A DNA stretch of 26,628 bases from an uncultured Verrucomicrobiota bacterium (GTDB lineage Bacteria; Verrucomicrobiota; Kiritimatiellia; RFP12; UBA1067). The notes beneath the pieces were generated by a model. It made no database searches, had not been told where the DNA came from, and was given only the letters and a program-made list of their open reading frames with translations. The DNA lies in NCBI GenBank assembly GCA_945487985.1, contig CALYTX010000001.1:1-26628 (forward strand). The letters run 5' to 3'. The first letter of the stretch is position 1. Every line of letters starts with the position of its first letter. Positions 1 to 24,521 of the stretch are shown piece after piece. The translations under genes were made by a program, and so were the position numbers.

Positions 1-2501
1 TAGCCGGGATCGTCCTTGCCCTTTACCGGCGGCAAATCCTTCGCTTTCGTCCGCCGGCCCTGCGACTCGCCGTTAAGAAATAGCTCGGCCGAATCGCCGC
101 TGGTGTAGCAGACGACCGTTATCTTCTCGCCTTCATGCCCTTCCCAGTTCCAGTGCGGCAGCAGATGAACCGTAGGCGAGCGCTCGTTCCACACCGACCG
201 GTAAAGATAGAACCGATCTTTCGGCAGCCCCGTCAAATCACAGATACCGAAGAAGGAACTGCGATTGGTCTGCCATTCTGGGCTGGGCTCGCCGAGATAG
301 TCAACGCCTGTCCAGACGAACTCTCCCGCGCAATAACTGTCGCGCCGCATCCGCGCCAGATCGGCATCGGCGATATCGGCCCATGGCGCACAGGTGCGAT
401 CGTAACTGTCGATATCGATCGCGCCGCGTCCGCCATGGTTCGCGGGTTTGTTCGTCGGCGTTAAATCGTAAAAGCCCCAGCTCGAAAACGCGCTGGCCGA
501 TTCTGAATACACAACGGGCTTGCTGGGATAGCGCTCACGCATCGCCGCATACTGTCCGCCATAGTTCCATCCTGTCAAATCCAGCGCTTCGTAATCGCCG
601 CGGCCAATCGCCGCCTGATAGCAACAGCCGATGCCGACCGGACGGGTGGCATCTTCCGCCAGAACCACCTCGCGGAACTTCCGGCAGCGTTCAGCGGTCG
701 TACCCTGCGGGTAGCTGGCGTCGGCTGGTCGAATCTCGTTGCCGATCGACCAGACAACGACCGAAGGATGATTGCGGTCGCGGCGGACGAATTCGCGCAG
801 ATTGCGTGCAACGACCTCATCAACATTCTCGCCGTCGATGATTCCGGCCGTGGCGTCCCACTTGTCGAAACATTCATTCCAGACCAGAAATCCCATCTCG
901 TCGCAGAGATCGAGCAACTGTGGATCGCAGATATTGTGTGCCGTACGCACGGCGTTGGCGCCCATATCCTTCATGATTGCGAGCCGCCGCCGCATCTCGC
1001 TGCGGTCGAAGGCCATGCCGAGCGGACCGAGATCAGAATGCAGATTCACGCCCTTAAGCTGCAGTCGCTTACCATTGAGGAAGAAACCCGTGTCGGTGAA
1101 TTCGGCCGTGCGAATACCAAAACGGAACTTGCGACCCAGCACGCTGTAGGGATAGAGATATGGATCGTCGGGGCTCCACAGCCGTGGATACGCGATATGA
1201 AGTTCTTCGACCACGTTCGTTTCAGGCTTTCCATACTTGATTCGCACCAGCGCGCGCTCCTTGGAAATCTCCGGCACGGTAATCTTAAGCGAACCGTAGA
1301 GGATTCTCTCGCGAGCATCGTCGATAACCACCGTAACATCTCGCACGATACCGGCGCCGGGATACCAGCGGCTGACATGCCGAGAAGTGTCGACTCGGAC
1401 AACCAAATCGTTGTCGACGCCGAATTTGACCTTTCCGGAAACATCCAGCTCGAAGGAAGCGTAGCCGTAGTCCCAACCACCGACCTTCTCGCCGTTTAGA
1501 TACACTTCGGGACGCGACATCACGCCATTGAACCTGATTCCGACATAAGAACCAGCGGCCGACGGAGGCAGGCGCAACTTGCGCCGGTAGTAACCAACTC
1601 CGCGCCACGGCAGCTTGCCCGTACAGCCGTTGGTGCAAGCGGTGGAAAAAGGACCTTCAATCGCCCAATCGTGCGGTATGCGCACGCTTCTCCAGACAAG
1701 ATTCGTGTCGGCGAATCCATTATCCAAAGCGTGCACGCCTGCGCTTTCCGGGCAAGTATCTTTCCATACTTGCGCGAACTGCCATGAATCGCGAATCACC
1801 GTTTCACCCGCGCGCGGATTGCCCGACTCGAGCACATGGCGAACCTGCTCCTCCACAACGCCCTTCGTCTTCGCATCGGGAGCAAGCACGTATCCGCGCA
1901 GGCGGTAGGGCATCCAGCCGACGGTCCAGCCCGTGTCGCGGAAGGGAAGGTCAAAAAGTGCCGGGTCGGCCAAAATGTCATCGCTCGTGCCCGAGAGCCC
2001 ATCGGGTCCGCAGGAATATAGCGTAGGATTCTCGGCCTCGCCGTTGTACACGTAGCCATAGTCGCGTTGCCAAGGGTCTTTGACTATCTGGCGCACATAC
2101 GGGCCGTCCCATCCGGATTTGGCGACCGTGGTTGAAGCGAGTTCTGCCAATCCTTCAGCGGTGGTTGGATAGCAACCCACATGATAGCGGTAGCGACCAA
2201 GAGCGATTGCCAGCGCATCAAGCGATTTACGGACATTGATTTGCGCCTTGGTTGGCTGCGGCGGACGCGACGGCCCGAGTTTGGCGAAGATCATCGAGGC
2301 GATCATTGCCATTCCGACGATGATTGCACCGTAGAACAGCATTCCCTTCTTCATCGCCGGGGCGCCCGAGCGAACTACTTCGGCTCGCTTGCGCTCGTAT
2401 TCGCGCCGGATACCCTTGATTGCGGCCGCCTTGCGGCGGCGCTGCTCGGCACTGTCGCGCCGGGGAGGAAATTTCTTACGAAGATTGTCCAAACCATCCA
2501 T
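1..2501 (-). CDS. GspG/T2SSG-like pseudopilin domain fused to GH2 beta-galactosidase-like glycoside hydrolase (3' end runs off the window; at least 833 aa)
   Basis: Hand-translated with no stop from ATG 2499-2501 (GGAGG 7 nt upstream) to the edge. Basic leader; hydrophobic helix MLFYGAIIVGMAMIASMIF; GspG motifs ALGRYRYHVGCYPTTAEGLAEL, WDGPY, KDPW, LYSCGPDGLSGTSDDI. Then GH2 motifs IPHDWAIEGPF, GVGYYRR, RWYPGAGIVRD, FGIRT, LKGVNLHSDLGPLG, DRNHPSVVVWSIGNE, VYSES, GEFVWTGVDYLGEP, PHWNWEG. Confidence 0.9.
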   Translation of the reverse strand, partial: MDGLDNLRKKFPPRRDSAEQRRRKAAAIKGIRREYERKRAEVVRSGAPAMKKGMLFYGAIIVGMAMIASMIFAKLGPSRPPQPTKAQINVRKSLDALAIALGRYRYHVGCYPTTAEGLAELASTTVAKSGWDGPYVRQIVKDPWQRDYGYVYNGEAENPTLYSCGPDGLSGTSDDILADPALFDLPFRDTGWTVGWMPYRLRGYVLAPDAKTKGVVEEQVRHVLESGNPRAGETVIRDSWQFAQVWKDTCPESAGVHALDNGFADTNLVWRSVRIPHDWAIEGPFSTACTNGCTGKLPWRGVGYYRRKLRLPPSAAGSYVGIRFNGVMSRPEVYLNGEKVGGWDYGYASFELDVSGKVKFGVDNDLVVRVDTSRHVSRWYPGAGIVRDVTVVIDDARERILYGSLKITVPEISKERALVRIKYGKPETNVVEELHIAYPRLWSPDDPYLYPYSVLGRKFRFGIRTAEFTDTGFFLNGKRLQLKGVNLHSDLGPLGMAFDRSEMRRRLAIMKDMGANAVRTAHNICDPQLLDLCDEMGFLVWNECFDKWDATAGIIDGENVDEVVARNLREFVRRDRNHPSVVVWSIGNEIRPADASYPQGTTAERCRKFREVVLAEDATRPVGIGCCYQAAIGRGDYEALDLTGWNYGGQYAAMRERYPSKPVVYSESASAFSSWGFYDLTPTNKPANHGGRGAIDIDSYDRTCAPWADIADADLARMRRDSYCAGEFVWTGVDYLGEPSPEWQTNRSSFFGICDLTGLPKDRFYLYRSVWNERSPTVHLLPHWNWEGHEGEKITVVCYTSGDSAELFLNGESQGRRTKAKDLPPVKGKDDPG

Positions 2502-2515
2502 GCGGAAACCTCCAC

Positions 2516-3805
2516 TTAGGTTATTGTCTCAAGAATCAGCGAACCAGTCGGCGGCGGCTGCGAGCCGATGACGAAAGCCTTCATCAGTTCCGCGGCGCAT
2601 TTCTCGAGCCCGTCCGGATCACCCGAACGCTCGAGCGTGGCCAGCGGAGCGCCGGCGACAACTTTCGCGCCGACTCCTACCGCCAGCGTCACGCCCGCGA
2701 GCGGATCTATCCGGTCGCCGGCGGCCAAACGCCCGGCGCCGAGCGCGAGCGCCGCGCGTGCGACTTTCTCGGCGTCGATGGCCGTAATGTAGCCCGAACG
2801 CATGGCCTGGATACGAAACTTGAAGGTGGGGCGCTCGCGCAACTCTGCAAACCGCGCCAGATTGCCACCGTGCCGCACGACCATCGCCTCAAACTTGGCG
2901 AACGCCGAACCATCCGCCAGCCGAGTCCGGCAAAGCTCGCGCGCATTCTCCAGCTCCATCGGCAGTGCAAGCGCAACCATCCATGCGGCCAGTTCGATGC
3001 AAAGCTCCACATCCGCACCGCCGCGCTCACCCTTGAGCAGCGAAATCGCCTCGGCAACTTCGTTCGCGTTGCCGACGGCGCATCCAAGCGGCGCGTTCAT
3101 GTCGGTAACGAGCGCGACCGCGCGGCGACCGGCCGCCTTTGCGCCGGCAACGAGCGCCGCGGCCAATTCGTGCGCCTCGGCTGGGGTCTTCATAAAAGCC
3201 CCGCGGCCGCACTTCACATCAAAAACCAGCGCCGAGGCGCCTTCGGCAAGTTTCTTGGAAAGTATCGACGAGACGATAAGCGGAATCGAGGCAACCGTTC
3301 CAGTCACATCGCGCAAGGCGTAGAGTTTTTTGTCCGCCGGGGTGATTTCAGCAGTCTGAACCGTCATCGAAACGCCAGTTTCGGAGACGACCCGGCGGAA
3401 TTCAGCAAGCGAAAGCGATGCATTGTAACCAGGAATCGACTCCAATTTGTCGGCCGTTCCGCCCGTGAGCCCCAGTCCGCGGCCGGTAAGGGAAGGCACA
3501 TGCACGCCGCAGGCGGCGGCCAACGGCTGCACGACCAGCGAGAGCTTATCGCCCACGCCGCCAGTGGAATGTTTGTCGGCGGAGGCAAACGGCCAGTCGA
3601 GGCACTCCCCTGAGCGCATCATCGCTTCAGTCAAATCGGCGGTTTCACGCTCATTCATACCCCGACAGCAGATGGCCATCGCCAAGGCCGACATCTGGTA
3701 GTCGGGAATAATCCCTTTCGTGAACAAATCGATAAACTCGCGGATTTCCGCGCTGCCCAGCGCACGACCTTCGCGCTTCTTGTCCAGCACTATCTTGGCT
3801 ATCAT
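2516..3805 (-). CDS. pdp: pyrimidine-nucleoside/thymidine phosphorylase
   Basis: DKHSTGGVGDK, SGRGLG-like TGRGLGLTGGTADKLESIPG, DKKLYALRDVTGTV, SILSKKLAEG and LVFDVKCGRGAFMK are family signatures. Confidence 0.95.
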   Translation of the reverse strand: MIAKIVLDKKREGRALGSAEIREFIDLFTKGIIPDYQMSALAMAICCRGMNERETADLTEAMMRSGECLDWPFASADKHSTGGVGDKLSLVVQPLAAACGVHVPSLTGRGLGLTGGTADKLESIPGYNASLSLAEFRRVVSETGVSMTVQTAEITPADKKLYALRDVTGTVASIPLIVSSILSKKLAEGASALVFDVKCGRGAFMKTPAEAHELAAALVAGAKAAGRRAVALVTDMNAPLGCAVGNANEVAEAISLLKGERGGADVELCIELAAWMVALALPMELENARELCRTRLADGSAFAKFEAMVVRHGGNLARFAELRERPTFKFRIQAMRSGYITAIDAEKVARAALALGAGRLAAGDRIDPLAGVTLAVGVGAKVVAGAPLATLERSGDPDGLEKCAAELMKAFVIGSQPPPTGSLILETIT

Positions 3806-4561: not shown

Positions 4562-5893
4562 CTACTCCTTGAGCCCCGGGGTGCCCAACAAGGTCAACTT
4601 CCGGATCTCAGAACGCGGGAAGGTCCGCTGCACGCCCATCGAAACTTCTATCGTTACGTAATCAGGTCCGTTGTTTACGAGCACTCCGCTGTGGCTGCCG
4701 GTATCCGTCACAATTTCGATATCAGGCGTAAAGACGCGCTTGAGCGCAATCTTCACTTCTTGCCCCTTTGCAGGCTCTACGGACACTTTCGACCGCGACA
4801 CCTCGTTATAGCCGCGGGCGCGCGCGGTCACGGTGTGCTCGCCCTTGGCAATGCCGTCGATCCGCAGCACGTCGCTAAATTTTGCCTTGGGGTCTTCCGA
4901 TTTCGTTTTACCGACGGTGCGTCCATCCACAATTACCGTGGCGCCCACAGGGGACGTGCGCACTTCTATCCAACCCAGCGTGCTTGACAGGCGAAACTCC
5001 TCGCGCACTGTCGCGCCGAATCCGACGGAAATGTCGCGTTCTACCGTACCGTAGTTTTGCATCTCCGCGCGCACAGTGTATTTGCCCGGCGCAAGATTGG
5101 GAATGGTCAATGGCCCCTTCCCGCGAATTTCGCCATTAAGATAAAATCGCGCTCCGTCCGGAACCGACGAGAGGATAAGCGAGCCAGGAATCCCCTCCAT
5201 GCGCACAAACAGATTCTGCCTGTCGCCCGCCGAAAGCGTAAGCTCGCGCTTCTCGTCGCGATAGCCGTCAAGGCGCAATGTCACGGCCGCCAGACCCTTG
5301 GGAATGTCGCGCACAGCTAAGGGCGTCTTGCCGCGCACCAGACCATTAACCGTAACTTCGGCACCAGCAGGCTCGCTATCGATATCGAGAATACCCGAAT
5401 CGAGAATCAACGTTTCGCTTTTCACTGCTGGCGTGCGGCCCGAAAGCTTCACTTCAACCGGACGAGGCTGGTAGCCCTGCTTCTGCAGCAGCAGCCGGTA
5501 AGACACCCCCGATTCAAGCGTAGTAATCAACCGCGGCGTCTCGCCGAGCGAAAGCCCATCAAGCGATATATTCGCCCCGGCCGGCTCCGAGACGACCAGC
5601 AGCAGACCCTTGACCGGCGCAAGCTCGGCGTGCTTCGACAGATACGCTCCTTCCCGCAGATGGAAAAACTCGTCGTGGGGTTCGCGATTTTTCATTTCGA
5701 AACGGACGTGGTGAGTGCCTTCGACCTTAAGATCGAAAAGCGTCAAGGGCGTGTTGCCGCGCACGACGCCGTCGACAACCACGCCCGCACCCTCGGGCTG
5801 GGAGGTGAAATCGACCCGGGCCGGCCGGGGAAGATCGCTGGCAATGGCCGCGAACGCGAACAGCGCCGCCGTTAGCGCGAGAGTTCCTTTCAT
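4562..5893 (-). CDS. secreted PEGA-repeat protein (about 5 PEGA domains plus small C-terminal beta domain)
   Basis: Signal peptide MKGTLALTAALFAFAAIA; five repeats of the type (T/S)xPxGAxVxxDG..xGxTPL (TSQPEGAG, VSEPAGAN, DSEPAGAE, SSVPDGAR, RTSPVGAT). Confidence 0.88.
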   Translation of the reverse strand: MKGTLALTAALFAFAAIASDLPRPARVDFTSQPEGAGVVVDGVVRGNTPLTLFDLKVEGTHHVRFEMKNREPHDEFFHLREGAYLSKHAELAPVKGLLLVVSEPAGANISLDGLSLGETPRLITTLESGVSYRLLLQKQGYQPRPVEVKLSGRTPAVKSETLILDSGILDIDSEPAGAEVTVNGLVRGKTPLAVRDIPKGLAAVTLRLDGYRDEKRELTLSAGDRQNLFVRMEGIPGSLILSSVPDGARFYLNGEIRGKGPLTIPNLAPGKYTVRAEMQNYGTVERDISVGFGATVREEFRLSSTLGWIEVRTSPVGATVIVDGRTVGKTKSEDPKAKFSDVLRIDGIAKGEHTVTARARGYNEVSRSKVSVEPAKGQEVKIALKRVFTPDIEIVTDTGSHSGVLVNNGPDYVTIEVSMGVQRTFPRSEIRKLTLLGTPGLKE

Positions 5894-7269
5894 TTCCGCT
5901 TACCCCCTTTCTTCGCACTGTTAATTCTCGCCTCGACATCAACAAGCTTGGAATTGGCTTCGGCGTGACGAGGATCAGTTTTATCAGGCACGAGATCGCA
6001 GAGAATGCGCAACTCGTCTCGCGCACGCTCCCAGTCGCCAAGGTTGATCGCCTTGTCGGCGAGAAAGCGCTGATCGCGGTAGCGCACATCAAGCTCAGCA
6101 ACGGCCCGGCGCAGCTTTTCCTTCAATTCCGGATAGGCCGCCGGCTTCGGGTTGACGGTCTCAAGATAAAAGACCGCTTCTTTGTAGGCCTTCACGGCGC
6201 TAGCGAGATTTCCATATTCGACTTCGCGCTCTTCCCACTTGCCGTCGGCAATCTGCTCGCTTTCGGTACTCAGTTCCAGCAATTTGTCACGCGAATACTG
6301 AATCGCCCAAATACCCAGCTCATTGCGCGAGAAGGTCTCCAGTGCCTCGCGGATGGGGATGAACGACTCTGGCTCGAACACGTTCTCGACGAGCACCTCC
6401 TTCATTTTGCCGCCGCGTACGAGCCGGATGCGCCAACTCTTGAGCGCATTTTCGTCTGCCGCACTCGGCCCGGAATAAACCTCGTCAAGACCATCCCAGC
6501 CAGAATTATCGAAAATTTCGCCGATGCGCGCAAGCGCCGCCTCGTTTAGGCGAGAAGATTTGTCGACATGGCGGTTTTCACTGGGAACGTCATCATAGAC
6601 GACCCTAAGCGTACCGGCGGCATCAATTGTCATCTGATAGCGGAAAATCCGCGACGAATCAGCCTCGACCTTTTCGTAATATAGCGAATCAAGACGATCA
6701 GCCTGCGCCGCGTCGGCTTCCGCCACGGGAGCCTTCGGCCGGCGGTTCTTGCCGCTGGGCACCGAGAGCACAAGCACAATTGCCGCGGTTACCGACAGCA
6801 CCGCCACAGCCCAGAGAATGTTCGCAAGCGGCGAGCGGCGCACTGGCGGCGGCTGAGCCATCTCGGCCGCTCTGGCGGCGTCCGCAGAGCTCAACCCCAA
6901 ATCAACTGCCGCGCCCTTGCGCGCCGCAGCCGCGCGCGGTTCCGCCGCGGATGGCGGCGCCTCGCCCTCCTCAACCACACAAATGCGCAGACCACCGGCC
7001 GTGACAATGTCGCCAGGCTTAAGCCCCCGGGGCTCGGCTGCGAGCTGCACACTATTGACGAACGTGCCGTTGGCGCTGGCCAAATCCATCACGCGAATGC
7101 CATCAGGGCCGTCGGGCTCGAAAAGACAGTGGCTGCGCGAAAGTTCCTCGTCTGGCACATGCACATCGTTCGACGACGAGCGTCCCAGCCGCAGACCCGT
7201 GTCGGTAACCGTAAAGCGCCTGCCGGCCAGTTCGCCATTTTCAATCAACAGTTCTGGTCGTTTGGCCAT
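5890..7269 (-). CDS. FHA-domain single-pass membrane protein with helical/TPR-like C-terminal region
   Basis: FHA motifs LGRSSSNDVHVPDEELSRSHC and MDLASANGTFVN; Ala/Pro linker; TM NILWAVAVLSVTAAIVLVLSV. Start placed at ATG 7267-7269, which overlaps the tadC stop (TGATG), not at 7341. Confidence 0.85.
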   Translation of the reverse strand: MAKRPELLIENGELAGRRFTVTDTGLRLGRSSSNDVHVPDEELSRSHCLFEPDGPDGIRVMDLASANGTFVNSVQLAAEPRGLKPGDIVTAGGLRICVVEEGEAPPSAAEPRAAAARKGAAVDLGLSSADAARAAEMAQPPPVRRSPLANILWAVAVLSVTAAIVLVLSVPSGKNRRPKAPVAEADAAQADRLDSLYYEKVEADSSRIFRYQMTIDAAGTLRVVYDDVPSENRHVDKSSRLNEAALARIGEIFDNSGWDGLDEVYSGPSAADENALKSWRIRLVRGGKMKEVLVENVFEPESFIPIREALETFSRNELGIWAIQYSRDKLLELSTESEQIADGKWEEREVEYGNLASAVKAYKEAVFYLETVNPKPAAYPELKEKLRRAVAELDVRYRDQRFLADKAINLGDWERARDELRILCDLVPDKTDPRHAEANSKLVDVEARINSAKKGGKRK

Positions 7270-8186
7270 CAGAACATTCCTTTCATTGCCTGCATCAGGA
7301 CTGGTCCCAGCAGAATGATGAATACCGCGGGAAAAATGCAAAGCATCAATGGGCCAAGCATCTTCGTAGGCGCTTCGTTGGCGAGCTTTTCGGCGCGGTC
7401 AAAGCGACGGCTGCGCAACTGCTCGGATTGGATACGCAAAATCGAACCGATCGACACCCCCAACTCGTCGGCCTGGATGAGTGCGTTGGCCACCGCCTTG
7501 AGGTCGCCCTGCCGGCAGCGCATGGCCATGTTCCGGAGCGCCTCTTTTCGCGACGAACCTACCTGTATTTCCTTGGTCATACGCAGCAGCTCCTCGTTAA
7601 GAGGATCCATCTTGCGCGTAGCGCAGTTGCGCTGAAGCGCGCTGATGAAATCCATGCCCGCCTCGACCGACAAGGTGAGAATGTCAAGCACAAAGGGCAA
7701 TGACTTCATGATCGACCAGTGGCGCTTCTTGACGGCATTCTTGAGCCACATCGTCGGCTGTAGAGCAAATAGCACAATCCCGAGCAGACAAAGCTCGATT
7801 CTGGAGCTCGTGAAGAGCGAATCGGGCAGCACCGCGCCAAAAAGGACAATCGCTACGCTCCATAGCACCCCCATCACCACCGGCACGAGAATCCGCAGTG
7901 CGACGAACTCCTTCCCGTCCACCAGTCCCTCGTAACCTCCCGCAACCAACATGGCATTGGCTTCCGTAACGGCCTTCTTAAACGACGGACGCGACACGAG
8001 CCGGTCGAGATTGCCAACGAACGGCAGCAGCATCTTGAAGGCAAGCGGAAACGAACGCTCTTGACGACGACCGTCCGCAAGCGTCACATAAGTGACTTCC
8101 CGGGCCACCGAGGCGGCGTATGCGGCCAACCCCGCAGCAGCAACCGACCAGGCCAGTATCAGCGCAATCTCCAGCGGATCGATCAT
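7269..8186 (-). CDS. tadC: Tad pilus inner-membrane platform protein (T2SSF family, TadC-like)
   Basis: LPFVLDILTLSVEAGMDF, LIQADELGVSIGSILRIQSEQLRSRRFDRAEKLANEAPTKMLGPLMLCIFPAVFIILLGP. Start at MIDPLE (8184-8186) downstream of an AAGGAG RBS. Confidence 0.9.
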   Translation of the reverse strand: MIDPLEIALILAWSVAAAGLAAYAASVAREVTYVTLADGRRQERSFPLAFKMLLPFVGNLDRLVSRPSFKKAVTEANAMLVAGGYEGLVDGKEFVALRILVPVVMGVLWSVAIVLFGAVLPDSLFTSSRIELCLLGIVLFALQPTMWLKNAVKKRHWSIMKSLPFVLDILTLSVEAGMDFISALQRNCATRKMDPLNEELLRMTKEIQVGSSRKEALRNMAMRCRQGDLKAVANALIQADELGVSIGSILRIQSEQLRSRRFDRAEKLANEAPTKMLGPLMLCIFPAVFIILLGPVLMQAMKGMF

Positions 8187-8208
8187 CGGCGGCACATCTC
8201 CTTTCTTA

Positions 8209-10269
8209 TCAACACACTGGGATTCCAGCACCGGCGAGCGCCATTGGCGATACCACTCCGCCGCCGCTCCCGGGCTCGCCCGCATAGAGGATCATCCCCT
8301 CGGAAACGCCAACGGACATCTTACGCGGCGCGAGATTAGCGACGAAGACAACCTCCTTGCCGACGAGTGCCGAGGGATCGGGATACGCCGCGCGAATGCC
8401 CGAGAAAATCGTCCGTTCGCCAAGCGCGCCCGCGTCGATAACGAATTTGAGCAGCTTGGCGCTCTTGGGAACGATTTCACAGCTCTTGACCAGCCCCACT
8501 CGCAAATCAATTTTCTCGAAATCCGCAAAAGCGATTTCACCTTTAATCCCTGGCGCGGCAACCGCAACAGCGGCGGACTTGGCTTTGTTCTTGGAAGCGC
8601 GACTTTCATGTTGAACCTCGCCAGAATCGGCGGGCTTCACCGTAGCGGCGGCGACCATCGCCTCCACCTGCCCGACATCAATGCGACTGGCAAGATACTC
8701 GTAGTCGCCCAGAGAGCGGTTTTCCAGCGTGGTCGCGATCGACTTCCATGTCCAACTCGTCTCGCCGAACAGTTTCATCGCCTTCTCGGCGTAGACTGGC
8801 AACACCGGCTGGAGATAGATGGCCAGAATGCGGAAGGCGTTCAATGCCGCAGTGAGCGTCACGCGCGTCGCTTCGGAATCGGTCTTCACCGTCTTCCACG
8901 GTTCCTTGCGGTCGAAGTACGCGTTCACGGCGTCGGCCAGACGACAGATTTCCACCACCGCCATATTGAAGCGTCGTTCCTCGTAGAAGCCGGCAATCGT
9001 TTCCGCGGCCGCGCGGCACTCCGCCACCAGTTCGGCACCCTCGGCGTCGAGCGCACCCAGGCGTCCGCTTAGTTTTTTCTGCAACATCTGCGCGCCGCGC
9101 GAAGCGATATTGGTAATCTTGCCGACAAGATCGGAATTGACGCGCTGGACAAAATCGGTCAGATTCAGATCCATGTCATCGGTGCTTCCGCCGAGCTTCG
9201 CCGCGTAATAATAGCGCAATGCCTCGGGCGGCAGATTGTCGAGATAGGTGCGGGCGTTAATGAATGTTCCCTTTGATTTCGACATTTTCTCGCCATTGAC
9301 GGTGAGAAAGCCGTGGACGAAGATTTTATCGGGTTGCGCGAACCCAGCCGTATGCAGCATTCCTGGCCAGAACAAGCAATGGAAACGAATAATATCCTTG
9401 CCAATGAAATGATAACGTTCGGCCTTGGGGTTCTGCCAGTAGTCATCAAACGATTTGCCGTGCGCCGCGCACCAGTTCGCGAGCGATGCGAGATAGCCGA
9501 TAGGCGCGTCAACCCAGACGTAAAAATACTTGTCCGGATCTCCGGGAATCTCGAAGCCGAAATAAGGCGCCGATCTGGAGATGCACCATCCGCGAAGCGG
9601 TTCCTTGAACCATTCCAGCAACTTGTTGGACACATCGCTCGTTGTGTGCGCAGGAATCCACTTCTCGAGATAGTCGTGCTGCGGCTCGAGCTCGAAATAA
9701 AGATGCTCGGAATCGCGAACTACCGGAGTGCCGCCGCACGTGGTGCATATCGGCGCCCCCAGCTCCTCGGCCGCATAAGTTGCTCCGCACCGGTCGCAAC
9801 TGTCGCCATACTGCCCTTCGGCACCGCACTTCGGGCAAATTCCCTTCACAAATCGGTCCGGCAAAAACATCTGGCAGTGCTCGCAATAGAGCTGCGGCGT
9901 CGTTTTGCGGGTGATGCCGCCAGATTTTTTCATCGCCTCATAAAAAAGCTCAGAAAGCTGCCGGTTTTCCGGGGAATTTGTCGAGTAGTAGTTATCAAAG
10001 GCAATCTGGAAATCAGTGAAATCCTTCAAATGGATAGCATGGGTATGCTCAACCAACTCTTCGGGGCTAATGCCTTCCCGGCGCGCACGAATCATGATGG
10101 GCGTGCCATGGGTATCGTCGGCGCAAACATAGACGCAATCGTGCCCGCGAAGTTTCTGAAAACGAACCCAGATATCAGTTTGAATATATTCGACCAAATG
10201 CCCAAGATGAATGTCTCCGTTGGCATATGGCAACGCGCTGGTGACCACAATTTTTCTTTGCTCGTCCAT
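8209..10269 (-). CDS. metG: methionyl-tRNA synthetase with C-terminal tRNA-binding domain
   Basis: ALPYANGDIHLGH, KMSKS, two Zn-knuckle CxxC pairs, YVWVDAPIGY, C-terminal DFEKIDLRVG...ANLAPRKM; AGGAG RBS. Confidence 0.98.
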   Translation of the reverse strand: MDEQRKIVVTSALPYANGDIHLGHLVEYIQTDIWVRFQKLRGHDCVYVCADDTHGTPIMIRARREGISPEELVEHTHAIHLKDFTDFQIAFDNYYSTNSPENRQLSELFYEAMKKSGGITRKTTPQLYCEHCQMFLPDRFVKGICPKCGAEGQYGDSCDRCGATYAAEELGAPICTTCGGTPVVRDSEHLYFELEPQHDYLEKWIPAHTTSDVSNKLLEWFKEPLRGWCISRSAPYFGFEIPGDPDKYFYVWVDAPIGYLASLANWCAAHGKSFDDYWQNPKAERYHFIGKDIIRFHCLFWPGMLHTAGFAQPDKIFVHGFLTVNGEKMSKSKGTFINARTYLDNLPPEALRYYYAAKLGGSTDDMDLNLTDFVQRVNSDLVGKITNIASRGAQMLQKKLSGRLGALDAEGAELVAECRAAAETIAGFYEERRFNMAVVEICRLADAVNAYFDRKEPWKTVKTDSEATRVTLTAALNAFRILAIYLQPVLPVYAEKAMKLFGETSWTWKSIATTLENRSLGDYEYLASRIDVGQVEAMVAAATVKPADSGEVQHESRASKNKAKSAAVAVAAPGIKGEIAFADFEKIDLRVGLVKSCEIVPKSAKLLKFVIDAGALGERTIFSGIRAAYPDPSALVGKEVVFVANLAPRKMSVGVSEGMILYAGEPGSGGGVVSPMALAGAGIPVC

Positions 10270-12460: not shown

Positions 12461-12790
12461 TCACTCCGGCACCGTCATGACCGGGATGTGCACCTCTTCG
12501 CTGACCTTCACTTCCGAAGAGCCGAAAATCACATCTGCCGCCAGCGCAGAGACGGCAATCGTTCCGCCCCCGTAGGCCGAAAAATAGGCTTCCTCTCCGC
12601 CAAAACCGTTCAACGCACCCTTCCCGGCACGCGCGCGGATTGTCCGTTGCTCGCCGCCGGCAAGCGTGATAAAATGAACGAAGGCGAAAAGAGCGGACAA
12701 CACGAGCGAAACCGCAAACATGCCAATGGCCAGCTCTACAAGCGCCTGAGCGCGTTCGGAACGCCGTCGGAACTGCCGATCAATGCCCAT
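12461..12790 (-). CDS. TadE/TadF-like minor pilin
   Basis: Basic leader RRRSERA, then QALVE and a hydrophobic helix (E at +5); lies within the Tad cluster. Confidence 0.75.
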   Translation of the reverse strand: MGIDRQFRRRSERAQALVELAIGMFAVSLVLSALFAFVHFITLAGGEQRTIRARAGKGALNGFGGEEAYFSAYGGGTIAVSALAADVIFGSSEVKVSEEVHIPVMTVPE

Positions 12791-14195
12791 GGCTCGTGCC
12801 TCCGTGCCCTCCGGGACCGCCGGTGCCGCGCCGGCAATAGCCCGAATTGTATTTGAGCCAAATCACGCCCTCGCGGCGAAACGACGCCCTCTCCCACGAT
12901 TGAAGCTGCAGACAATAGAAGCATCCCTGTGCATTCAGCGGGCCGTACTCAAGATATGCGCCAAGGTGGTGACGGACATGATTCACCCAGCCGAAATCGG
13001 CCGTGGCGAGATTTTCCCCACCGACAGAATCAAGCGCAACCAGCCGCACATTGGTCATAGTCCGCGGCACTACGAACGAATTAAGCGCAGTAACAACATC
13101 GCGCTCGAGTTCGAAGGTCTCAACCGTACCGAATGGCTTGGCCGCGGCACTCCACGTCAAATTGGCTACCGCATCCACCGCCGTCGGCTCTAAACTCGCA
13201 TCGCATCGACATACTGCCGCCGCGCCACGAATGTTGTATTCGGGCTTGATGTCCCCCACGATTGGAAAGGCATAGCCGTAGTCATCTCCCGCCAACGCGC
13301 GTCCGTTGAACCATTGAGTCCATACCGAATCATCGTAGAAAAACCACACCTCCTCGCGATTCGTCAGAATATGCGAAGCGGCAAGCTCCTCGTCGGATAC
13401 CTTCCTTTCGCAGTAACGCTCGAGAAGCAATTTGATTTCCTCGCGAGTAAAAACTTCGCTCAACGCCCCCTTGCGCGCGCTCAAATGCAAGGAGAATATC
13501 TCCGAATTGCCAAGGGAATTCTGTTTGCGCGAAGGCAATTCCCCCCAGTCATGGAAATTCCGGTAGTCGCTCAGGACATTTTTGCAGTTGAAATGAAACC
13601 AACACCAGTTCTTGCCGGAAATGGCATTGTAAAACTGGCGGTTCAGCAGCAAATGTCCTCCCGCAGCATCATAAAACTCCATATTGTCAGGACCTGCGGC
13701 CAGACCGCCGGCAATGGCGTTTTCGATTGCGCTGGCGTAATCGGTCCAAGCGCCAGGGTACGCCTCGGGGTAAGGATCGCCGTCCTGTCCGCCGCCGGCA
13801 TAGACGGTGCGGATATCCTTGATATGTTCGCGCAAAATCTGCGAGAACTCATCGCGCACGGCCATGCCGTTCTTCCTCGCGGCCTTGTCGGCAAGCACCA
13901 ACGCTTGCACTGGACCTATCAGAGCCAACCGACGCTGGGAAAGCACGATTTCGTCACACAACTTCGCGTCGTTGGCTATCGCCGCCTGAAGATGCTCGAT
14001 ATTGAGCCGGCCGATTTCGTTGATAAGCGATCCTTGTTTGCGCGCAGCTGCAATGGCCGCAGCATCACCGCCGTTCTGCAGATGGTTTTTGGTCCGCACC
14101 GCAATGAATGTATCCACATTCAGCAACACCAGCAGAACTATAACCGCCAGCACGAAGGCGAGCACAATAGCAATCTGTCCGCGGCGGGCATCCAT
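12780..14195 (-). CDS. TadG-like large minor pilin
   Basis: RRG|QIAIVLAFVLAVIVLLVLL with no E5, followed by the Tad motif LQNGGDAAAIAAAR; translationally coupled to both neighbours. Confidence 0.8.
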   Translation of the reverse strand: MDARRGQIAIVLAFVLAVIVLLVLLNVDTFIAVRTKNHLQNGGDAAAIAAARKQGSLINEIGRLNIEHLQAAIANDAKLCDEIVLSQRRLALIGPVQALVLADKAARKNGMAVRDEFSQILREHIKDIRTVYAGGGQDGDPYPEAYPGAWTDYASAIENAIAGGLAAGPDNMEFYDAAGGHLLLNRQFYNAISGKNWCWFHFNCKNVLSDYRNFHDWGELPSRKQNSLGNSEIFSLHLSARKGALSEVFTREEIKLLLERYCERKVSDEELAASHILTNREEVWFFYDDSVWTQWFNGRALAGDDYGYAFPIVGDIKPEYNIRGAAAVCRCDASLEPTAVDAVANLTWSAAAKPFGTVETFELERDVVTALNSFVVPRTMTNVRLVALDSVGGENLATADFGWVNHVRHHLGAYLEYGPLNAQGCFYCLQLQSWERASFRREGVIWLKYNSGYCRRGTGGPGGHGGTSHGH

Positions 14196-14665
14196 CAGAA
14201 CCCTCCGTCATTCATATAAAACGGGTAGTGCGCTTCACACGCGGCACGCCCAGACGCCTCGATTTCCTCCGCCGTCAAATCTACCGCAACTTCCACCGCA
14301 GCGGAAAGACCCGCGCCCGAGCGAATGTCGATGGCGGTATGCGGCCAGTATTCGTACTCTAAAACGCCGTTCGCGAGCGCTTCGTCTTCCGACGAAAGAT
14401 AAATCGGCACGCGCGAGACCTCGGCAAAGCCACCCTCCTCGGGCCACAGGCGCCGCCCGGCGACCGGGATCATCGCCACTCTGGCCGATTTCTCGCACAT
14501 GAAATCGTTGAACCCAACAGCCTTCGCCCGCGCAGCGCGCGCGGCAGCGTGGTCAAGAAGCGTAAGCGCCTCGAGCTTACGGGAAATCCCGTAAGCTCCG
14601 GAGAATATCGCCATTATCAGCAAAATGGCGATCACCGTTTCGACGATCGCCTGGCCGCGGTGCAT
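14195..14665 (-). CDS. TadE-like minor pilin
   Basis: MHRG|QAIVETVIAILLIMAIFSG, then LDHAAARAARA. Confidence 0.82.
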   Translation of the reverse strand: MHRGQAIVETVIAILLIMAIFSGAYGISRKLEALTLLDHAAARAARAKAVGFNDFMCEKSARVAMIPVAGRRLWPEEGGFAEVSRVPIYLSSEDEALANGVLEYEYWPHTAIDIRSGAGLSAAVEVAVDLTAEEIEASGRAACEAHYPFYMNDGGF

Positions 14666-15078: not shown

Positions 15079-18000
15079 TCATCGAACGATGACCGACAAT
15101 CCGGCCGTCGCGGACATCGAGGCCCACGGCGTATTACCGTAGTAGCCGTAATTGAGCCGACCGCCGTTCGGCTTCGGTTCGCGGAGCGTGCCGTCCTTCA
15201 CCTTCGCACCGGCGTCGATGGCCGGCGAGACGACGCGCGGAACGCGCACCAGCTCCCCCGTTACCTCGTCGAAGTAACCGGTCTTGCTCTGAAGGTGGAC
15301 ATTAATCTCCGTCGATTCAAGCGCAAAGGTCGGCGACTGGCCCTTGATCTCAATCGCACACTCTGGCGTCATCAATAGCGGATCGCCCGTCCTGATATTC
15401 GCCCCGAACTTGATACGACCTGCGTTCGCACCGTCGGCGCAATGCGCCGCATCGACAGCATCGAAGAAGCAGTCGTCGACATCGATGCCGGTCGCCGCAC
15501 TCTCGCTCGACGCGGTCGAGACGTACAAGTCATGTCCAGTATACGGGCCCGACCACGAGGTGAAAGTGCCGGCCGGCGCGTCATTGGCCCGATTGCCGTG
15601 GAAGATCGAATTGCGGATTGTCACCTTGCCCTTGTAGACGCATACCGCGCTGCCACTGCCGAGATAGCCGGCGTTGTACGCCCAGGTACAGTTCTCGAAG
15701 TTGCATGTTTGCGCATCATCATTCAGGATCACCAGACAGCCGATCGGCGCACCATTGTCATTTACACCATAACCCTCGTTCGCCACGAAGGCGCAGTTGC
15801 GGATGACGCTGCCGCCAGAATTGCCGGTCAGGGCCAGCATTCCGCCCGTGTAGATCGGCCCAGAATCGCGATGCGAAAGCACTCGATTGCCCACCAAGGT
15901 GCAGCCCGTCATCGTAAGCGGCGCATTGTCGCAGCGCACCACCCCGCCTCGCGTTCCAGTGCGCCCAGCGACGTTGTTGTTCCCCTTCGGCGGACCATTC
16001 TTCACGAACCGGCAACCGGTCACGGTCACCGTCTTGAAGTTCTTCGCCGAGAGTGCCATGCCGGAATGATCGCGGCTCGACTCGCTCCATGAGAAATTAC
16101 CGGTGAAGTAGCAATCCTGCACCGTCAGCGCGGACGATGATGCCGAACCCTCGCTCTGTAGGCCCATGCCCCAGCAACTGTTCGACAAGCCGTTTCCTAT
16201 AAACGAGCAATGCTCTACCCGGAGGTCGCCTTTTCCCGATTTCATGACGGCCGGTCCGGGGCAGTTTGTAATCAGCAAATGACGCAAAACCGACTCGCCC
16301 GTTGTCGCCGCGAGGTGAAAGGCTTGATAACGGCCCTGTCCGTTGATCTCCGAGATATTCGTCCCCGTACGCTCGTCCAGCGACTGCTCATTGCCAGCGA
16401 ATCCGCCGATGATTGTCACCGGTTGCTCGAAGACGGCAGGCCCTGCCGTCATCTGCAAGTCTCCTGCCACGCAAATCGTGCGACGACCCTCCGCCACGAA
16501 CTCGCTCGCCATCACCAGATTAGTGCACGCATTCATCCAATCCGAACCGTCGCTGCAGCCCTTCGCGCTCGACCAGACATGAATCACGTCCGCGCCGCAA
16601 CTACAGCCGAAGCCTGGCGGTTCGTTGCCAGAGACGGACACCGACTCGATCGGCGTGGCGGCTGTGCCCAACGCGCAAACGGCGACCCAACGGTAGTAGT
16701 ACTTTGTCCCCGTCGCCACGAATTCAAGCGGTTCCATCTCGATTGTGTCGCCAACCGTCTTCAAGATGCCGACCCGGCGGCTATGCTCCCAACCGGCAAA
16801 CTCCTCCTCGCTTGACGGCGCGAGGCCATAGCAGAAATACACCTCGGCGAGGGTCGATGTCCCCTCCTCCGTTGCCGTCAGTGTCGCCGAAAAAAGCGGC
16901 TTGGTGAAATTGTTGCTCTGGTCGATTGCCTTGTTCGCCAATTGCGGCATTGAACCGGCATAGACCACTTCTCCCGTCTTTTCATCGCGGCCATTGGCGT
17001 TCTCGGCACACACCAGCCAGTAGAGCCTCGTGCCCGTTGTATGGTATTCGTTCACCGTCGACTCAAGGACATCGCCGCTATCCGTCCCCCAAAAAGGCAC
17101 AACATGATCCCAACCCTCAAGCCCCGCGCCAGCCGTCATGCCATAGCAGAGATAAGTAGTCGCCGAATAACCGGCGTCGCCGCCCATCGTGATCGAGAAA
17201 CGGCCGCGATACGACGCGTCGGGTTGGACGAAGGCAACCTCGGACAAGACTGGCTTCAGCAAACTCGGCGCAGACGCCTCGTCCGTATTGCCATAATAGC
17301 CGAGGTCGATCGCCCTCGACGGTGACGGCTCATTCGCGGCGTCCGCAGCTGGATCGCCCGCGTCGATGGCCGGCGACTGGTCCGCGTCCTTCACCCATTC
17401 CGTGCCGTTCCAGCGCGCTTGCGTGCTCATCAAATGGAAGTCGAGCGCCGCGAAATCCGCGTCACCCTTCACGCAGCAGGAATTAGCACCGCTCTTGCCC
17501 TTGTAATAATCCGACTTGAAGGTCTCCCGCGTGGTCACGAAGCGCGGATCGGCCGAGAAAACGCTCGCGGCGAGATTCAATGTGCCGGCCGTCGCCGCGC
17601 AGGTTGTCTTAGCGTCCGTCACCAGCGAATAGGCGACATTGATCTGCGCATTCGCGCCCCAGGCAAGCAAATCGGCCGCAACCCCGTATTTCCCGACCTC
17701 ATTACCGAAGATAATCGAGTTCGCAATATTGACCGTGCCGGAACTCACGGAGATGCCCGCGCACTTGCCAGTTCCGGTCACATTATAGGCGATGGTGCAA
17801 TTCTCGACCGCAACCGTCTGCGTCGCGCCGCCTAAATCGACCGCCAGCGCCGCACCGCGCAAATTGAGAGTGTCACTGTAGCAGATTGTGCAGTTGGCCG
17901 CCATCAAACAGTTCTTGAAAGAGGAACCGTTGCAATTCCCATTAAGTTTGAACAGCGCGCCGCCTTGCCAGTCCCTATGAGCGCCGAAACGATTGCCAAT

Positions 18001-18747
18001 TAAACGGACATTCTTTGCATGAACGGGGGAGGCGTTGACATAGATGAGGGTTGGATTGTTCTCGCGTCCGGAACAATTGTCATCAAGATTCGTCTTGCAG
18101 CCACACTGCGCGATTAAGCAATCGTTCATGACGACTTCTTTGAAATTGTCAATTCGCAGCAGCCAGCCTGCCCACTCGGCCGGGTGCGCGCCTTCCGTCG
18201 GATCGCGCACGCGCTCAATCGTCACGTTGTCGAGCGTCAGCACCGAAGAGTCTGCCGCCCCTTTAACCCACAGGGCATGACCCAACTTAGTTTTGGTCGG
18301 AGTCATATCATAGATTGAGACCTGGCGAAGCGAGAGCGACGCATTGCCGCTTTGCTTGATGACTGCATGCTCGGTTGCGGCGGTGAAGGCGAGCCCCTCC
18401 AGCACCACCGCGCCCGTCGTCGCCGTGACCGTCAAGAGATCGGCGACACTGTTTCCGCCGTTCAGCACCGAACGCGCCTGCGGATTCCGCGTCTCGGCCG
18501 AGATCTCATCACCGGTAAAACCGCCGCGGACCGTAACGGGATTGGCCAGCGTGTATCCTTGCGTCAGCGAATATGCTCCCTCCTTAAGCCACGCTTCATC
18601 GTCAGCCTGCAGCGTTGAAAGAACCTCAATCGAAGCCGGATCGCTCCAAGAAGAACCAGAACCCGTTCCAGTAGGAGTTACATAATAAACACCAGCGCAC
18701 AGAGCCGTCGACAGCAAGCCGACAACCGCACACAACATTTCCCTCAT
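15079..18747 (-). CDS. large secreted protein with two right-handed beta-helix (pectin-lyase-like) modules and two Ig/FN3-like linkers
   Basis: Signal peptide MREMLCAVVGLLSTALCA; Asn/Cys-rich repeats (NCLMAANC, ENCTIAYN, NSIIFGN); two SPAIDAG...GYYGNT module ends; C-terminus GLSVIVR; GGGGGA RBS. Confidence 0.75.
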   Translation of the reverse strand: MREMLCAVVGLLSTALCAGVYYVTPTGTGSGSSWSDPASIEVLSTLQADDEAWLKEGAYSLTQGYTLANPVTVRGGFTGDEISAETRNPQARSVLNGGNSVADLLTVTATTGAVVLEGLAFTAATEHAVIKQSGNASLSLRQVSIYDMTPTKTKLGHALWVKGAADSSVLTLDNVTIERVRDPTEGAHPAEWAGWLLRIDNFKEVVMNDCLIAQCGCKTNLDDNCSGRENNPTLIYVNASPVHAKNVRLIGNRFGAHRDWQGGALFKLNGNCNGSSFKNCLMAANCTICYSDTLNLRGAALAVDLGGATQTVAVENCTIAYNVTGTGKCAGISVSSGTVNIANSIIFGNEVGKYGVAADLLAWGANAQINVAYSLVTDAKTTCAATAGTLNLAASVFSADPRFVTTRETFKSDYYKGKSGANSCCVKGDADFAALDFHLMSTQARWNGTEWVKDADQSPAIDAGDPAADAANEPSPSRAIDLGYYGNTDEASAPSLLKPVLSEVAFVQPDASYRGRFSITMGGDAGYSATTYLCYGMTAGAGLEGWDHVVPFWGTDSGDVLESTVNEYHTTGTRLYWLVCAENANGRDEKTGEVVYAGSMPQLANKAIDQSNNFTKPLFSATLTATEEGTSTLAEVYFCYGLAPSSEEEFAGWEHSRRVGILKTVGDTIEMEPLEFVATGTKYYYRWVAVCALGTAATPIESVSVSGNEPPGFGCSCGADVIHVWSSAKGCSDGSDWMNACTNLVMASEFVAEGRRTICVAGDLQMTAGPAVFEQPVTIIGGFAGNEQSLDERTGTNISEINGQGRYQAFHLAATTGESVLRHLLITNCPGPAVMKSGKGDLRVEHCSFIGNGLSNSCWGMGLQSEGSASSSALTVQDCYFTGNFSWSESSRDHSGMALSAKNFKTVTVTGCRFVKNGPPKGNNNVAGRTGTRGGVVRCDNAPLTMTGCTLVGNRVLSHRDSGPIYTGGMLALTGNSGGSVIRNCAFVANEGYGVNDNGAPIGCLVILNDDAQTCNFENCTWAYNAGYLGSGSAVCVYKGKVTIRNSIFHGNRANDAPAGTFTSWSGPYTGHDLYVSTASSESAATGIDVDDCFFDAVDAAHCADGANAGRIKFGANIRTGDPLLMTPECAIEIKGQSPTFALESTEINVHLQSKTGYFDEVTGELVRVPRVVSPAIDAGAKVKDGTLREPKPNGGRLNYGYYGNTPWASMSATAGLSVIVR

Positions 18748-18801
18748 AATCAATCCCCCATAAATCAAGATAGGCTAACAGACCACCCCTTAATAATGCA
18801 A

Positions 18802-23700: not shown

Positions 23701-24393
23701 CTGCGCCGAGACGATCGCGGAGCAGTCGTTCGGGACGGTGATCTCCGTTTCTACCGTCAGCTTCTTCTGCCGCCAGGAAGTGTTGGCGAAGACGTCTTCG
23801 ATGCACACCGGCGACTTGGCGGTTAGAAACGGCGGATCCTTCTCGAACTTAAAACGGGCGTCTTTCGCGCCGGACATGAGCATCGCGAACTCGTTCGGTG
23901 CGGCGACCTTCACGAATTTCGTTACATCGAGTTCGCCGGCGGGTTGCTTAATGACGCCCGCGAACGTGCCATTGATCCAAAGCCCCACGTCACAGTTCTT
24001 GATGCCGGTCTGCGAATAAATGAGCCGGCATCCGTCCCAATGGCGAGGAACATCCATCCTCGCTTTCAGCCAGGCGCCGCGGTAGTTGCCGATAGGTTTT
24101 TTAAACCCGCCCGCCGGAGGAGTCCAGGAGTTGCCCTCGGTTTCATTTTGCAGAAGACACTGCGCCCACCACTGTCCGTTCCAGAACTTCCACTGCCCCC
24201 ACTGGGAATCCGGCTCGGTCGGCAGCGCGATGGCCTCGGGCTTTGAAAGATCCGCCGGCTTCTCCACCGGCAGCAGCTTCCAGAACTTCGCGACTTTGTC
24301 GGACATCACAACCTTCGAATCGACCTTCTCCGCTGCGAGAGCGGAAAACGCCGCCAAGATTCCGAGGAGCGGAATCACCCACCTCTTCGACAT
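20740..24393 (-). CDS. secreted GH2-like multidomain glycoside hydrolase homologue
   Basis: Signal peptide MSKRWVIPLLGILAAFSALA (AAGGGGGA RBS); sugar-binding sandwich; PITWELGRGYLY, FGFREIW...MNG; RNYP; PFQACEFG; C-terminal class-I GATase-like/trimerisation-type domains. Confidence 0.78.
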   Translation of the reverse strand: MSKRWVIPLLGILAAFSALAAEKVDSKVVMSDKVAKFWKLLPVEKPADLSKPEAIALPTEPDSQWGQWKFWNGQWWAQCLLQNETEGNSWTPPAGGFKKPIGNYRGAWLKARMDVPRHWDGCRLIYSQTGIKNCDVGLWINGTFAGVIKQPAGELDVTKFVKVAAPNEFAMLMSGAKDARFKFEKDPPFLTAKSPVCIEDVFANTSWRQKKLTVETEITVPNDCSAIVSAQVLDAAGKVVKEVSGKFSLKAGTSVVKPSVDWKNPITWELGRGYLYTLKTQAKINGKTISYKDVKFGFREIWRDERKIFMNGHEQKYRVTYNFGCNRYGAKFLTGVGYNCIQFAHQTSLDPTLNEEDLQYFSEHGIAIVAPTTAFDWNTKNPLLKPGEKREAFKRLQAMNLRKYRNYPCLAMVYMGVNTYLPQWAYEAVHLGSGDNGDFAKMMTDLVAAAKETNPNILYFSHSDGNTGEIASANLYLNWIPLQERESWPSRWAERGHFPFQACEFGHPYQYSWYKDERDLITEYCAIYYGEEAYRLEPRTIQERHIESLYIRRLQHPLFWKLTEDFCWRTTRAWRTFGVNAGIVWFNLDYGYGMPGWTIEGIYNKYGPNYGFFKSEADIPKGKPEWAFPSWDIYRKGNLDFLGWIAGYPRITDRRHAYYPGEKIVKRNVMMWDGFDNRSFVAEWTATVGGQKVASGRFKRALTSNRPVSDKIAFAAPEVRQKTAGEIKVVYRNANGAEEFVDTCAFEVYPRKAVKWEKAPEFALYDPDGQTEPALRKLGLVNLRKVASPADFGTATRLVVGSFALGKDGYMALPMEAVEKGLKVLVLPQNADAWKGFGFDVQDRMSRILFIRDRTSPAWKKLDDDYVREWNGAPRTQQKNAYNRQQYGSLVKHQKHEPRWTYEMAVAALQLRSPDVVGYTPVVEGELDMNYAALLRYRRGKGEVLFCTLDFLGRIDTSAPEGAADISATDPAIEQTAAAVFADFCGKGAEPAARAVIADGTTAQKIAAELGVKTVVKPQADAGELLLVGPDGKTSAAQVVAAANRGANVLVLCNDTVAKGLGFVLKPCGPDVYWVKFDHQNSDLQGIGQSQLRWRERMKYSVLQQGSAPSGTRIDGEGIFASMRFKGGGTVFVSQYDPYYLENKIATAEFYFVNNKKNPVSEKNRARDLKHGDLSFERGRQFTARLLTNLGASPTAGEVKLYNGLKSTFDPYLYTYW

Positions 24394-24521
24394 CAACAAT
24401 CCCCCTTTGCAACCTATGTCAGTTAATCTCGGCGAGTATCGGCACCGACAAGCCCCGACCTGTCTGATGGTCATTGTCAACTGCGGCGCACAATGATTTC
24501 CCCCATGCCAAGACTTTGAAG

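Follow-up and report, generated by a model that had tools for sequence, protein, structure and literature searches.

The stretch of DNA considered here, hereafter the window, comprises 26,628 nucleotides (nt) of contig CALYTX010000001.1 from an uncultured bacterium of the Kiritimatiellia (Verrucomicrobiota; GenBank assembly GCA_945487985.1), a pig-gut genome which is 64% complete. At the first edge of the window, on the minus strand, lies a gene in which a module containing the head of a type II secretion system (T2SS) major pseudopilin, GspG, is joined in frame to an enzyme of glycoside hydrolase family 2 (GH2). The fusion is real and under selection, and its product is probably an uncleaved periplasmic β-galactosidase that is tethered to the inner membrane. 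The original prediction, made from the sequence alone, had described a stop-free frame from ATG 2501 to the window edge, and this frame is indeed present. The features of the gene and of its upstream border are as follows, the segments of the N-terminal module having been defined from alignments of 22 and of 34 fused homologues:

3..2501, minus strand: whole fusion reading frame, 833 codons with no stop, its 3′ end cut by the contig edge
2343..2501, minus strand: basic, predicted cytoplasmic tail, residues 1–53, conserved, with 18 Lys/Arg and 7 Asp/Glu, ending in KKG
2274..2342, minus strand: single hydrophobic helix, residues 54–76 (MLFYGAIIVG...), with no FTLIE motif and with Gly at +5
2250..2273, minus strand: Pro-rich break PSRPPQPT, residues 77–84, between the transmembrane helix and the head helix
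1965..2249, minus strand: GspG-type globular head, residues 85–179, with the Ca-loop motif GPDG..GT.DD.
1827..1964, minus strand: Trp-rich extension (PFRDTxWTxGWxPxxLRGY) plus a helix, residues 180–225, conserved; the C-terminal end of standalone orthologues
1797..1826, minus strand: true linker at the fusion junction, residues 226–235, short and of low confidence in the model
3..1796, minus strand: GH2 β-galactosidase-like enzyme, residues 236–833 (sugar-binding domain, immunoglobulin (Ig) domain, TIM barrel and start of DUF4982)
735..737, minus strand: codon of the acid/base Glu, E589 (WSIGNE), invariant in 34 of 34 copies
501..503, minus strand: codon of the nucleophile Glu, E667 (YSES), invariant in 34 of 34 copies
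2509..2513, minus strand: Shine–Dalgarno sequence GGAGG, 7 nt before ATG 2501 and directly after the stop of the upstream gene
2516..3805, minus strand: pyrimidine-nucleoside phosphorylase (PyNP) gene, immediately upstream of the fusion, with its stop at 2516–2518

The part of the protein that is lost beyond the contig edge is supplied by a 99%-identical database protein of 991 residues (P0002), in which the rest of DUF4982 and the GH2 C5 domain follow. The proposal of an intact GH2 enzyme fused in frame holds, therefore, as regards the fusion and the active site, although the gene as found in the window is truncated. The same combination of T2SSG and GH2 domains occurs in at least 34 clusters (at 90% identity) with lengths of 934–997 residues and 58–99% identity to the window protein, drawn from NCBI metagenome-assembled genomes (named Kiritimatiellia or Kiritimatiellae), ENA, JGI and Logan. 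Near-identical DNA is present in pig-gut and other gut or faecal metagenome runs from 10 studies, and the junction is spanned in independent sources: two pig-gut contigs, X2 (7490 nt) and X7 (2892 nt), cover positions 1–2600 and 1–2558 with substitutions only and no gaps. Moreover, 33 of the 40 listed sites of population variation are synonymous, and synonymous changes dominate across both halves of the gene, with 8 synonymous against 3 nonsynonymous sites in the first 235 codons. The junction is also bridged by a metatranscriptome-library contig covering positions 1081–1854; it is only weak evidence of expression, since such libraries can contain DNA.

A misassembly or frameshift at the junction is ruled out by the 34 homologous clusters, the gap-free independent contigs and the synonymous variation. 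In other words, it is vanishingly improbable that two separate genes were joined by an artefact of assembly or annotation. Nothing was found in favour of such an artefact, the sole weakness being that the window copy lies at a contig edge; against it stand four data sources with homologues down to 58% identity, along with the RNA-library contig. An internal start at M50, which would leave a short MKKG leader, is also ruled out, in that the 49 residues upstream of it are conserved in all homologues and GGAGG precedes ATG 2501.

The pseudopilin-like module and the enzyme

The GspG/T2SSG core that had been predicted within the N-terminal part is confirmed on several counts. Pfam T2SSG matches residues 90–174 (E 2.8e-19; 69.6 bits against a cut-off of 21), and at the sequence level PulG/GspG chains of solved structure align with the head (5wda, E 6.7e-12). 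An AlphaFold2 (AF2) model of residues 1–235 has a mean confidence score (pLDDT) of 88.6, and a fold search of this model with Foldseek against the PDB returned GspG, EpsG or PulG for all of the top 15 matches, with target template-modelling scores of 0.61–0.73 for 14 of them and 0.48 for the fifteenth. The Ca-loop residues D167, G171, T172, D174 and D175 are invariant in the fused clade, as are, in the alignment of 22 sequences, the tail residues L7, K10, F11, P12, Y35, K38 and P48. The NCBIfam equivalog model for GspG (TIGR01710) gives 63.3 bits, below its cut-off of 88.85. The module contains a true GspG-type head but is not GspG itself.

In comparison with GspG/PulG/EpsG, the T2SS major pseudopilins, the fusion protein is alike in the fold of the head, at about 30% identity, in the GPDG..GT.DD Ca-loop and in a similar distance from helix to head. 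It differs in having no G|FTLIE class III signal and no Glu5, in its conserved and predicted cytoplasmic tail of 53 residues, in the Pro-rich break of α1, in the extra Trp-rich C-terminal extension, in its position outside a gsp operon and in about 760 residues of GH2. Indeed, the genome that carries the fusion encodes a separate canonical GspG. In pilins, α1N and α1C run on as one helix, which makes up the core of the filament. As regards the break, relatives have GKGGP where the window protein has PSRPPQPT, and the AF2 model places a coil at residues 75–84, ahead of the head helix; within filaments this region is partly molten in real pilins as well. The hydrophobic helix 54–76 is read as a putative signal-anchor derived from pilin α1N. 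What had been taken for a linker of about 58 residues after the head proves otherwise: residues 180–225 are conserved, are modelled at a pLDDT of 90–96 and form part of the standalone orthologues, so that this ‘linker’ is mostly module and the real one is confined to about residues 226–235.

One residue of the head sets the window copy apart. Codon 149 (positions 2055–2057) encodes Gly in the window, in a column that is otherwise invariant and is Val in 34 of 34 homologues; two other metagenome contigs encode Val at this codon (C>A at 2056), and Gly149 is either a private variant or an assembly error.

In the enzyme part, Pfam recognises Glyco_hydro_2_N at 271–391, Glyco_hydro_2_C at 468–623 (E 2e-28) and DUF4982 at 791–820, and NCBIfam points to a β-galactosidase of the GalB/GalA type, GalB scoring 539 bits, under the equivalog cut-off. 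The closest solved relatives are the GH2 β-galactosidases 9bey (E 5.6e-144) and 5t98 (E about 1e-143), and a fold search with the model of the whole protein returned GH2 relatives only, with no fused entry. The two catalytic glutamates which the original prediction had named, E589 and E667, align with the equivalent motifs of 9bey, and all 34 intact copies keep them both, together with the whole barrel, under purifying selection. The enzyme part is accordingly to be regarded, from its sequence, as a bona fide GH2 with a predicted intact active site. What it shares with the GH2 exo-β-galactosidases (9bey; BuGH2A, 5t98/5t99; BgaD, 4ypj; BgaA, 4cu6) is a layout of five domains, DUF4982 and C5 among them, as well as the acid/base motif NE and a Glu as nucleophile. 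Those enzymes and the closest non-fused paralogues use Sec signals or other anchors; the fused GH2 lacks a separate signal and has the GspG-like module as its carrier. In this regard, ordinary Sec signal peptides are found on the nearest GH2 relatives outside the fusion, namely P0036, P0040 and a copy that the genome itself carries on contig C190, from which it follows that the GH2 belongs outside the cytoplasm; other exported proteins in the window likewise carry ordinary Sec signals.

Distribution, locus and history of the module

An exhaustive HMMER search with residues 1–235 gave 41 representatives at E≤1e-30. These were sorted by Pfam and by a table of coverage against P0002 into five classes:

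Class 1: intact GH2 fusions
Class 2: complete proteins of 600–800 residues that have lost both catalytic Glu as well as about 60% of the TIM barrel
Class 3: proteins of 440–470 residues with module, DUF4982 and C5 only
Class 4: proteins of about 380 residues with module and C5
Class 5: standalone modules of 200–270 residues

The module of tail, transmembrane helix, head and extension is present as one copy in each of the 12 other genomes of the same family (species-representative genomes), mostly in short frames, and also in 15 of 15 genomes from a further family of the order. Of the long proteins with the module, all 42 are GH2 or GH2 remnants, with no enzyme partner other than GH2 among them. 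In two genomes (G074 and G194) the standalone protein stops just past the LRGY motif, and its gene lies directly after the PyNP gene, which also precedes the 64%-identical fusion P0005, the remnant form P0124 and the standalone P0159. The PyNP neighbour is therefore common to standalone, full-fusion and remnant forms, which makes this one orthologous locus. A sigma-like gene downstream of the standalone module in G074 and G194 had suggested a link to anti-sigma factors; this lead was dropped, the neighbour being confined to one genus.

In a quick tree of the module, with the root set by an outgroup, the fused forms make up one group (SH-aLRT support 97) and the standalone forms are basal. Within the fused group, intact and degraded forms are interleaved, and the well-supported branches force at least 4–5 changes between them. 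The simplest history would be a single fusion followed by repeated decay of the catalytic core. A further form is seen in P0037–P0042 (780–789 residues), in which the first tail residues and the transmembrane helix are joined directly to the start of the GH2, the whole GspG head having been cleanly deleted; in these proteins, therefore, the helix can only be a signal or an anchor.

Two other sets of genes touch on this history. Five proteins, P0118 (L024:5263–7506), P0046, P0069, P0110 and P0119, have lost the active-site core of the barrel, and their N-terminal modules are nearly identical to those of intact fusions (branch lengths 0.02–0.09). The substrate-site aromatics of their N-domain are also replaced (GGWDYGY to GGCDDGC, with SRWYPGAG lost), and they are recently derived pseudo-enzymes. 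In one relative, at L018 (G164:C22; 9607–13962), a separate GH2 gene of 868 codons lies about 1.1 kb downstream of a standalone module gene, and its product is 35% identical to the fused GH2. Such a neighbourhood could favour gene fusion, though the paralogue is a distant one.

The gene neighbourhood of the module is a housekeeping one: the neighbours of the fusion gene in the window encode PyNP, TlyA, a PEGA protein, an FHA protein, a T2SSF-like protein and MetRS, and no T2SS operon surrounds the gene in the window or at the loci of relatives that were inspected. Just one pilus-related neighbour recurs, a block in which T2SSF-like (single T2SSF domain), FHA/YscD-like and PEGA-domain genes stand together, with TlyA next after them; in the window it occupies 4562–8285 (−), and it is also seen at L014 and L024. 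This block, which may be a small pilus- or secretion-related unit, lies upstream of the module gene in the window and at P0005 but downstream of it at P0118, and is unlinked to it in other genera.

The repeated loss of the barrel raises the possibility that what is conserved is the work of the module and the C-terminal Ig-like domains, which might, for instance, form a tether in the periplasm, a partner at which a secretion or pilus machine docks, or a stalk that binds glycans. The GH2 barrel would then be an accessory, dropped by many lineages, and the window enzyme would simply ride on a structural protein. Complete relatives that have lost about 60% or all of the barrel along with both Glu, and that still keep module, DUF4982 and C5, are consistent with such a role, as are the interleaving of intact and degraded forms, the remnant P0124 at the same PyNP locus, and the presence of the T2SSF–FHA–PEGA block beside both P0118 and the window gene, albeit on opposite sides. 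Against it, every intact copy retains its catalytic residues and barrel under purifying selection, no partner was identified, and the linkage to the T2SSF block is absent in other genera. On balance this role is possible but doubtful.

Processing signal and membrane topology

The class III signal that defines pilins, a short, basic leader that closes with Gly at −1 and then a hydrophobic N-methylation motif, is absent from the fusion protein. Even at E≤10, Pfam N_methyl (PF07963/IPR012902) finds no match in residues 1–235 or in L016, a standalone orthologue; the positive controls, GspG and the GspH-like protein of the genome that carries the fusion, score 30.4 and 21.1 bits. These canonical pseudopilins are encoded on another contig (L010, G000:C78, 1333–2555, plus strand), where a GspG with G|FTLIE is directly followed by the GspH-like gene. 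At +5 after the Gly, the window protein has Gly and its homologues have Ser, Ala, Thr, Met or Val, and Glu occupies this position in none of about 150 family representatives. In this wider family, moreover, distant members have Arg, Ser, Lys or Thr in place of the Gly itself, Pro is common at +1, and two GH2-derived members have lost the Gly and read RR-FPYY. Distant standalone members carry zinc ribbons at the cytoplasmic N-terminus, replacing or extending the tail. The conserved tail, the lost Gly and the zinc ribbons would suit a permanent cytoplasmic domain and not a discarded leader.

The reading to be preferred, and probably the correct one, is thus that of an uncleaved, inner-membrane-tethered periplasmic β-galactosidase, for which we infer the topology, the non-cleavage, the periplasmic location and the substrate. 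The 53-residue N-terminal tail is strongly basic and by the positive-inside rule would therefore stay in the cytoplasm. The hydrophobic helix would cross the inner membrane as an uncleaved signal-anchor, making the protein bitopic, such that the GspG-type head and the Trp-rich extension would lie on the periplasmic face and the GH2 exo-β-galactosidase, predicted to be active, would hang from the head. Residues 1–225 would represent an older single-copy protein of this Kiritimatiellia lineage, descended from a T2SS major pseudopilin with loss of the prepilin signal, to the 3′ end of whose gene a periplasmic or secreted GH2 gene, with paralogues that have ordinary Sec signals, would have been fused once. 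Held at the periplasmic face of the inner membrane, the enzyme may trim imported galacto-oligosaccharides. That the transmembrane helix works as an anchor is suggested by P0037–P0042, which keep the helix without the head, and by the Sec export of the paralogues.

Several points weigh against this reading. In the clade with intact GH2 the Gly after two basic residues (G53) is invariant and the residue at +1 is always hydrophobic, and prepilin peptidases need little more than a Gly after basic residues and a hydrophobic +1. Of the good genomes in the order, 28 of 28 carry a prepilin peptidase gene; that none was found in the present genome is no argument, since this genome is 64% complete and every good one has the gene. 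The distance from Gly to head is pilin-like, within 2–3 residues of that in PulG, and the tip pseudopilin GspK also lacks Glu5. In addition, a mere anchor explains neither the strong conservation of the GspG head and its Ca loop nor the many relatives in which the catalytic barrel is gone while the module and the Ig-like domains at the C-terminus persist. The conservation of head and extension, together with the retention of the module in gutted enzymes, indicates that the module has a function of its own.

The first of these points are what would be expected of a modular tip pseudopilin which is cut after G53, lacks Glu5 as GspK does, and primes or caps the T2SS endopilus or a type IV filament with the β-galactosidase at its tip, in the periplasm or at the surface. 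The genuine GspG fold with its Ca loop and the canonical GspG and GspH of the genome accord with such a subunit, and pilins of the modular kind, whose C-terminal modules are bulky, are known and are believed to occupy the tip (PMC8179133). This is nevertheless unlikely: N_methyl is negative where the internal controls are positive, the Gly is lost and Pro stands at +1 in many family members (the two GH2-derived ones included), the 53-residue ‘leader’ is strongly conserved and has zinc ribbons in its place in distant relatives, α1 is interrupted by the Pro-rich break, the head-deleted variants retain the transmembrane helix only, and there is no operon context for a T2SS or a type IV pilus. The original prediction had left the choice between an enzyme built into a filament and one anchored at the inner membrane; the anchor is retained, and the filament is disfavoured by the missing N_methyl motif and Glu5, the conserved tail, the Gly that is not kept and the lack of a T2SS operon. 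That the module still works as a filament subunit, which is cut after G53, lacks Glu5 and, from the tip of a type IV filament or a T2SS endopilus, displays an active 85-kDa β-galactosidase, is likewise unlikely. If it were true, this would be the first pilin to bear an enzyme, here a carbohydrate-active enzyme (CAZyme), and the first glycosidase borne by a pilin, as well as a new presentation of glycan-degrading enzymes in bacteria of the Planctomycetes–Verrucomicrobia–Chlamydiae (PVC) group.

The N-terminus might otherwise be a Sec signal peptide with an unusually long n-region, from which signal peptidase I would free a soluble protein of GspG head and GH2. Some relatives do have small residues after the helix (SATG or SVAG, then KGG), in keeping with such a cleavage. 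In the window protein, on the other hand, Lys stands at −3 (FAKLG), and the site lacks conservation; the hydrophobic stretch of 21–23 residues has transmembrane length, and the long n-region is itself conserved, all of which leaves this a very remote prospect.

Relation to known systems and other genes of the window

The general idea of modular pilins is already published (PMC8179133). There, more than 1,200 such proteins with 264 architectures are described, among them PilB with a vWA module and PilC with a lectin module from Streptococcus sanguinis (Raynaud et al. 2021), and they are defined by the N-terminal IPR012902 class III motif together with an extra, non-pilus domain. The fusion protein is similar to them in that a bulky functional module is grafted through a short linker onto an N-terminal pilin-type module. 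It is dissimilar in that their IPR012902 motif is undetectable in it, although the extra domain, GH2, is present; compared with modular pilins, the pilin module here looks like an exapted membrane anchor. No glycoside hydrolase module appears in the portions of the text and supplements of PMC8179133 that were examined, the discussion of which also treats tip pseudopilins of the GspK type. GspK, unlike the fusion protein, still has the class III signal; its extra domain interrupts the pilin fold, and its gene belongs, together with those of GspI and GspJ, to the gsp operon. Tip minor pseudopilins of this type share with it the lack of Glu5 and a large extra domain on a pilin scaffold. A further parallel is found in the archaeal sugar-binding proteins of the Sulfolobus ‘bindosome’, carbohydrate-acquisition proteins which borrow a pilin-type N-terminus; these retain a cleavable class III signal, have no pilin head, and are binding proteins and not enzymes.

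Searches of the literature found no paper on a pseudopilin–GH fusion, on the standalone module family or on prepilins in Kiritimatiellota, in agreement with the initial statement that no pilin–CAZyme fusion of this kind had been described, and a protein-atlas look-up returned only Kiritimatiellota T2SSG ‘hypothetical proteins’. Members carry the database labels ‘GH2’, ‘DUF4982 protein’ or ‘GspG’; in other words, automatic annotation names such proteins after one half or the other and misses the combination. We rate the protein as a combination of known kinds, namely a membrane-anchored glycosidase and a pilin-derived carrier. What it would represent is a secretion-pilus subunit repurposed, in which the head of a major pseudopilin lost its processing signal, gained a cytoplasmic tail and turned into a membrane protein that gut and environmental Kiritimatiellia conserve, and was then used once as the carrier of a carbohydrate-degrading enzyme. 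The natural series at one locus, of module alone, module with enzyme, module with gutted enzyme, and anchor with enzyme but no head, offers a handle on the role of a GspG head outside the pseudopilus.

Elsewhere in the window, at 12780–14665 (−), a gene for a TadG-like protein (Pfam Tad, 471 residues) is followed by one for a protein of 156 residues whose N-terminus resembles TadE/F (RGQAIVETVIAILL); both are parts of a Tad/Flp pilus system, of which no ATPase or secretin is encoded in the window. Two very large exported proteins, of 1229 and 1246 residues, are encoded at 15079–18768 (−) and 20740–24480 (−). Both are without pilin-like parts and have ordinary Sec-type N-termini, and in the protein of 1246 residues the only domain recognisable by Pfam is a GH2 Ig-like domain.

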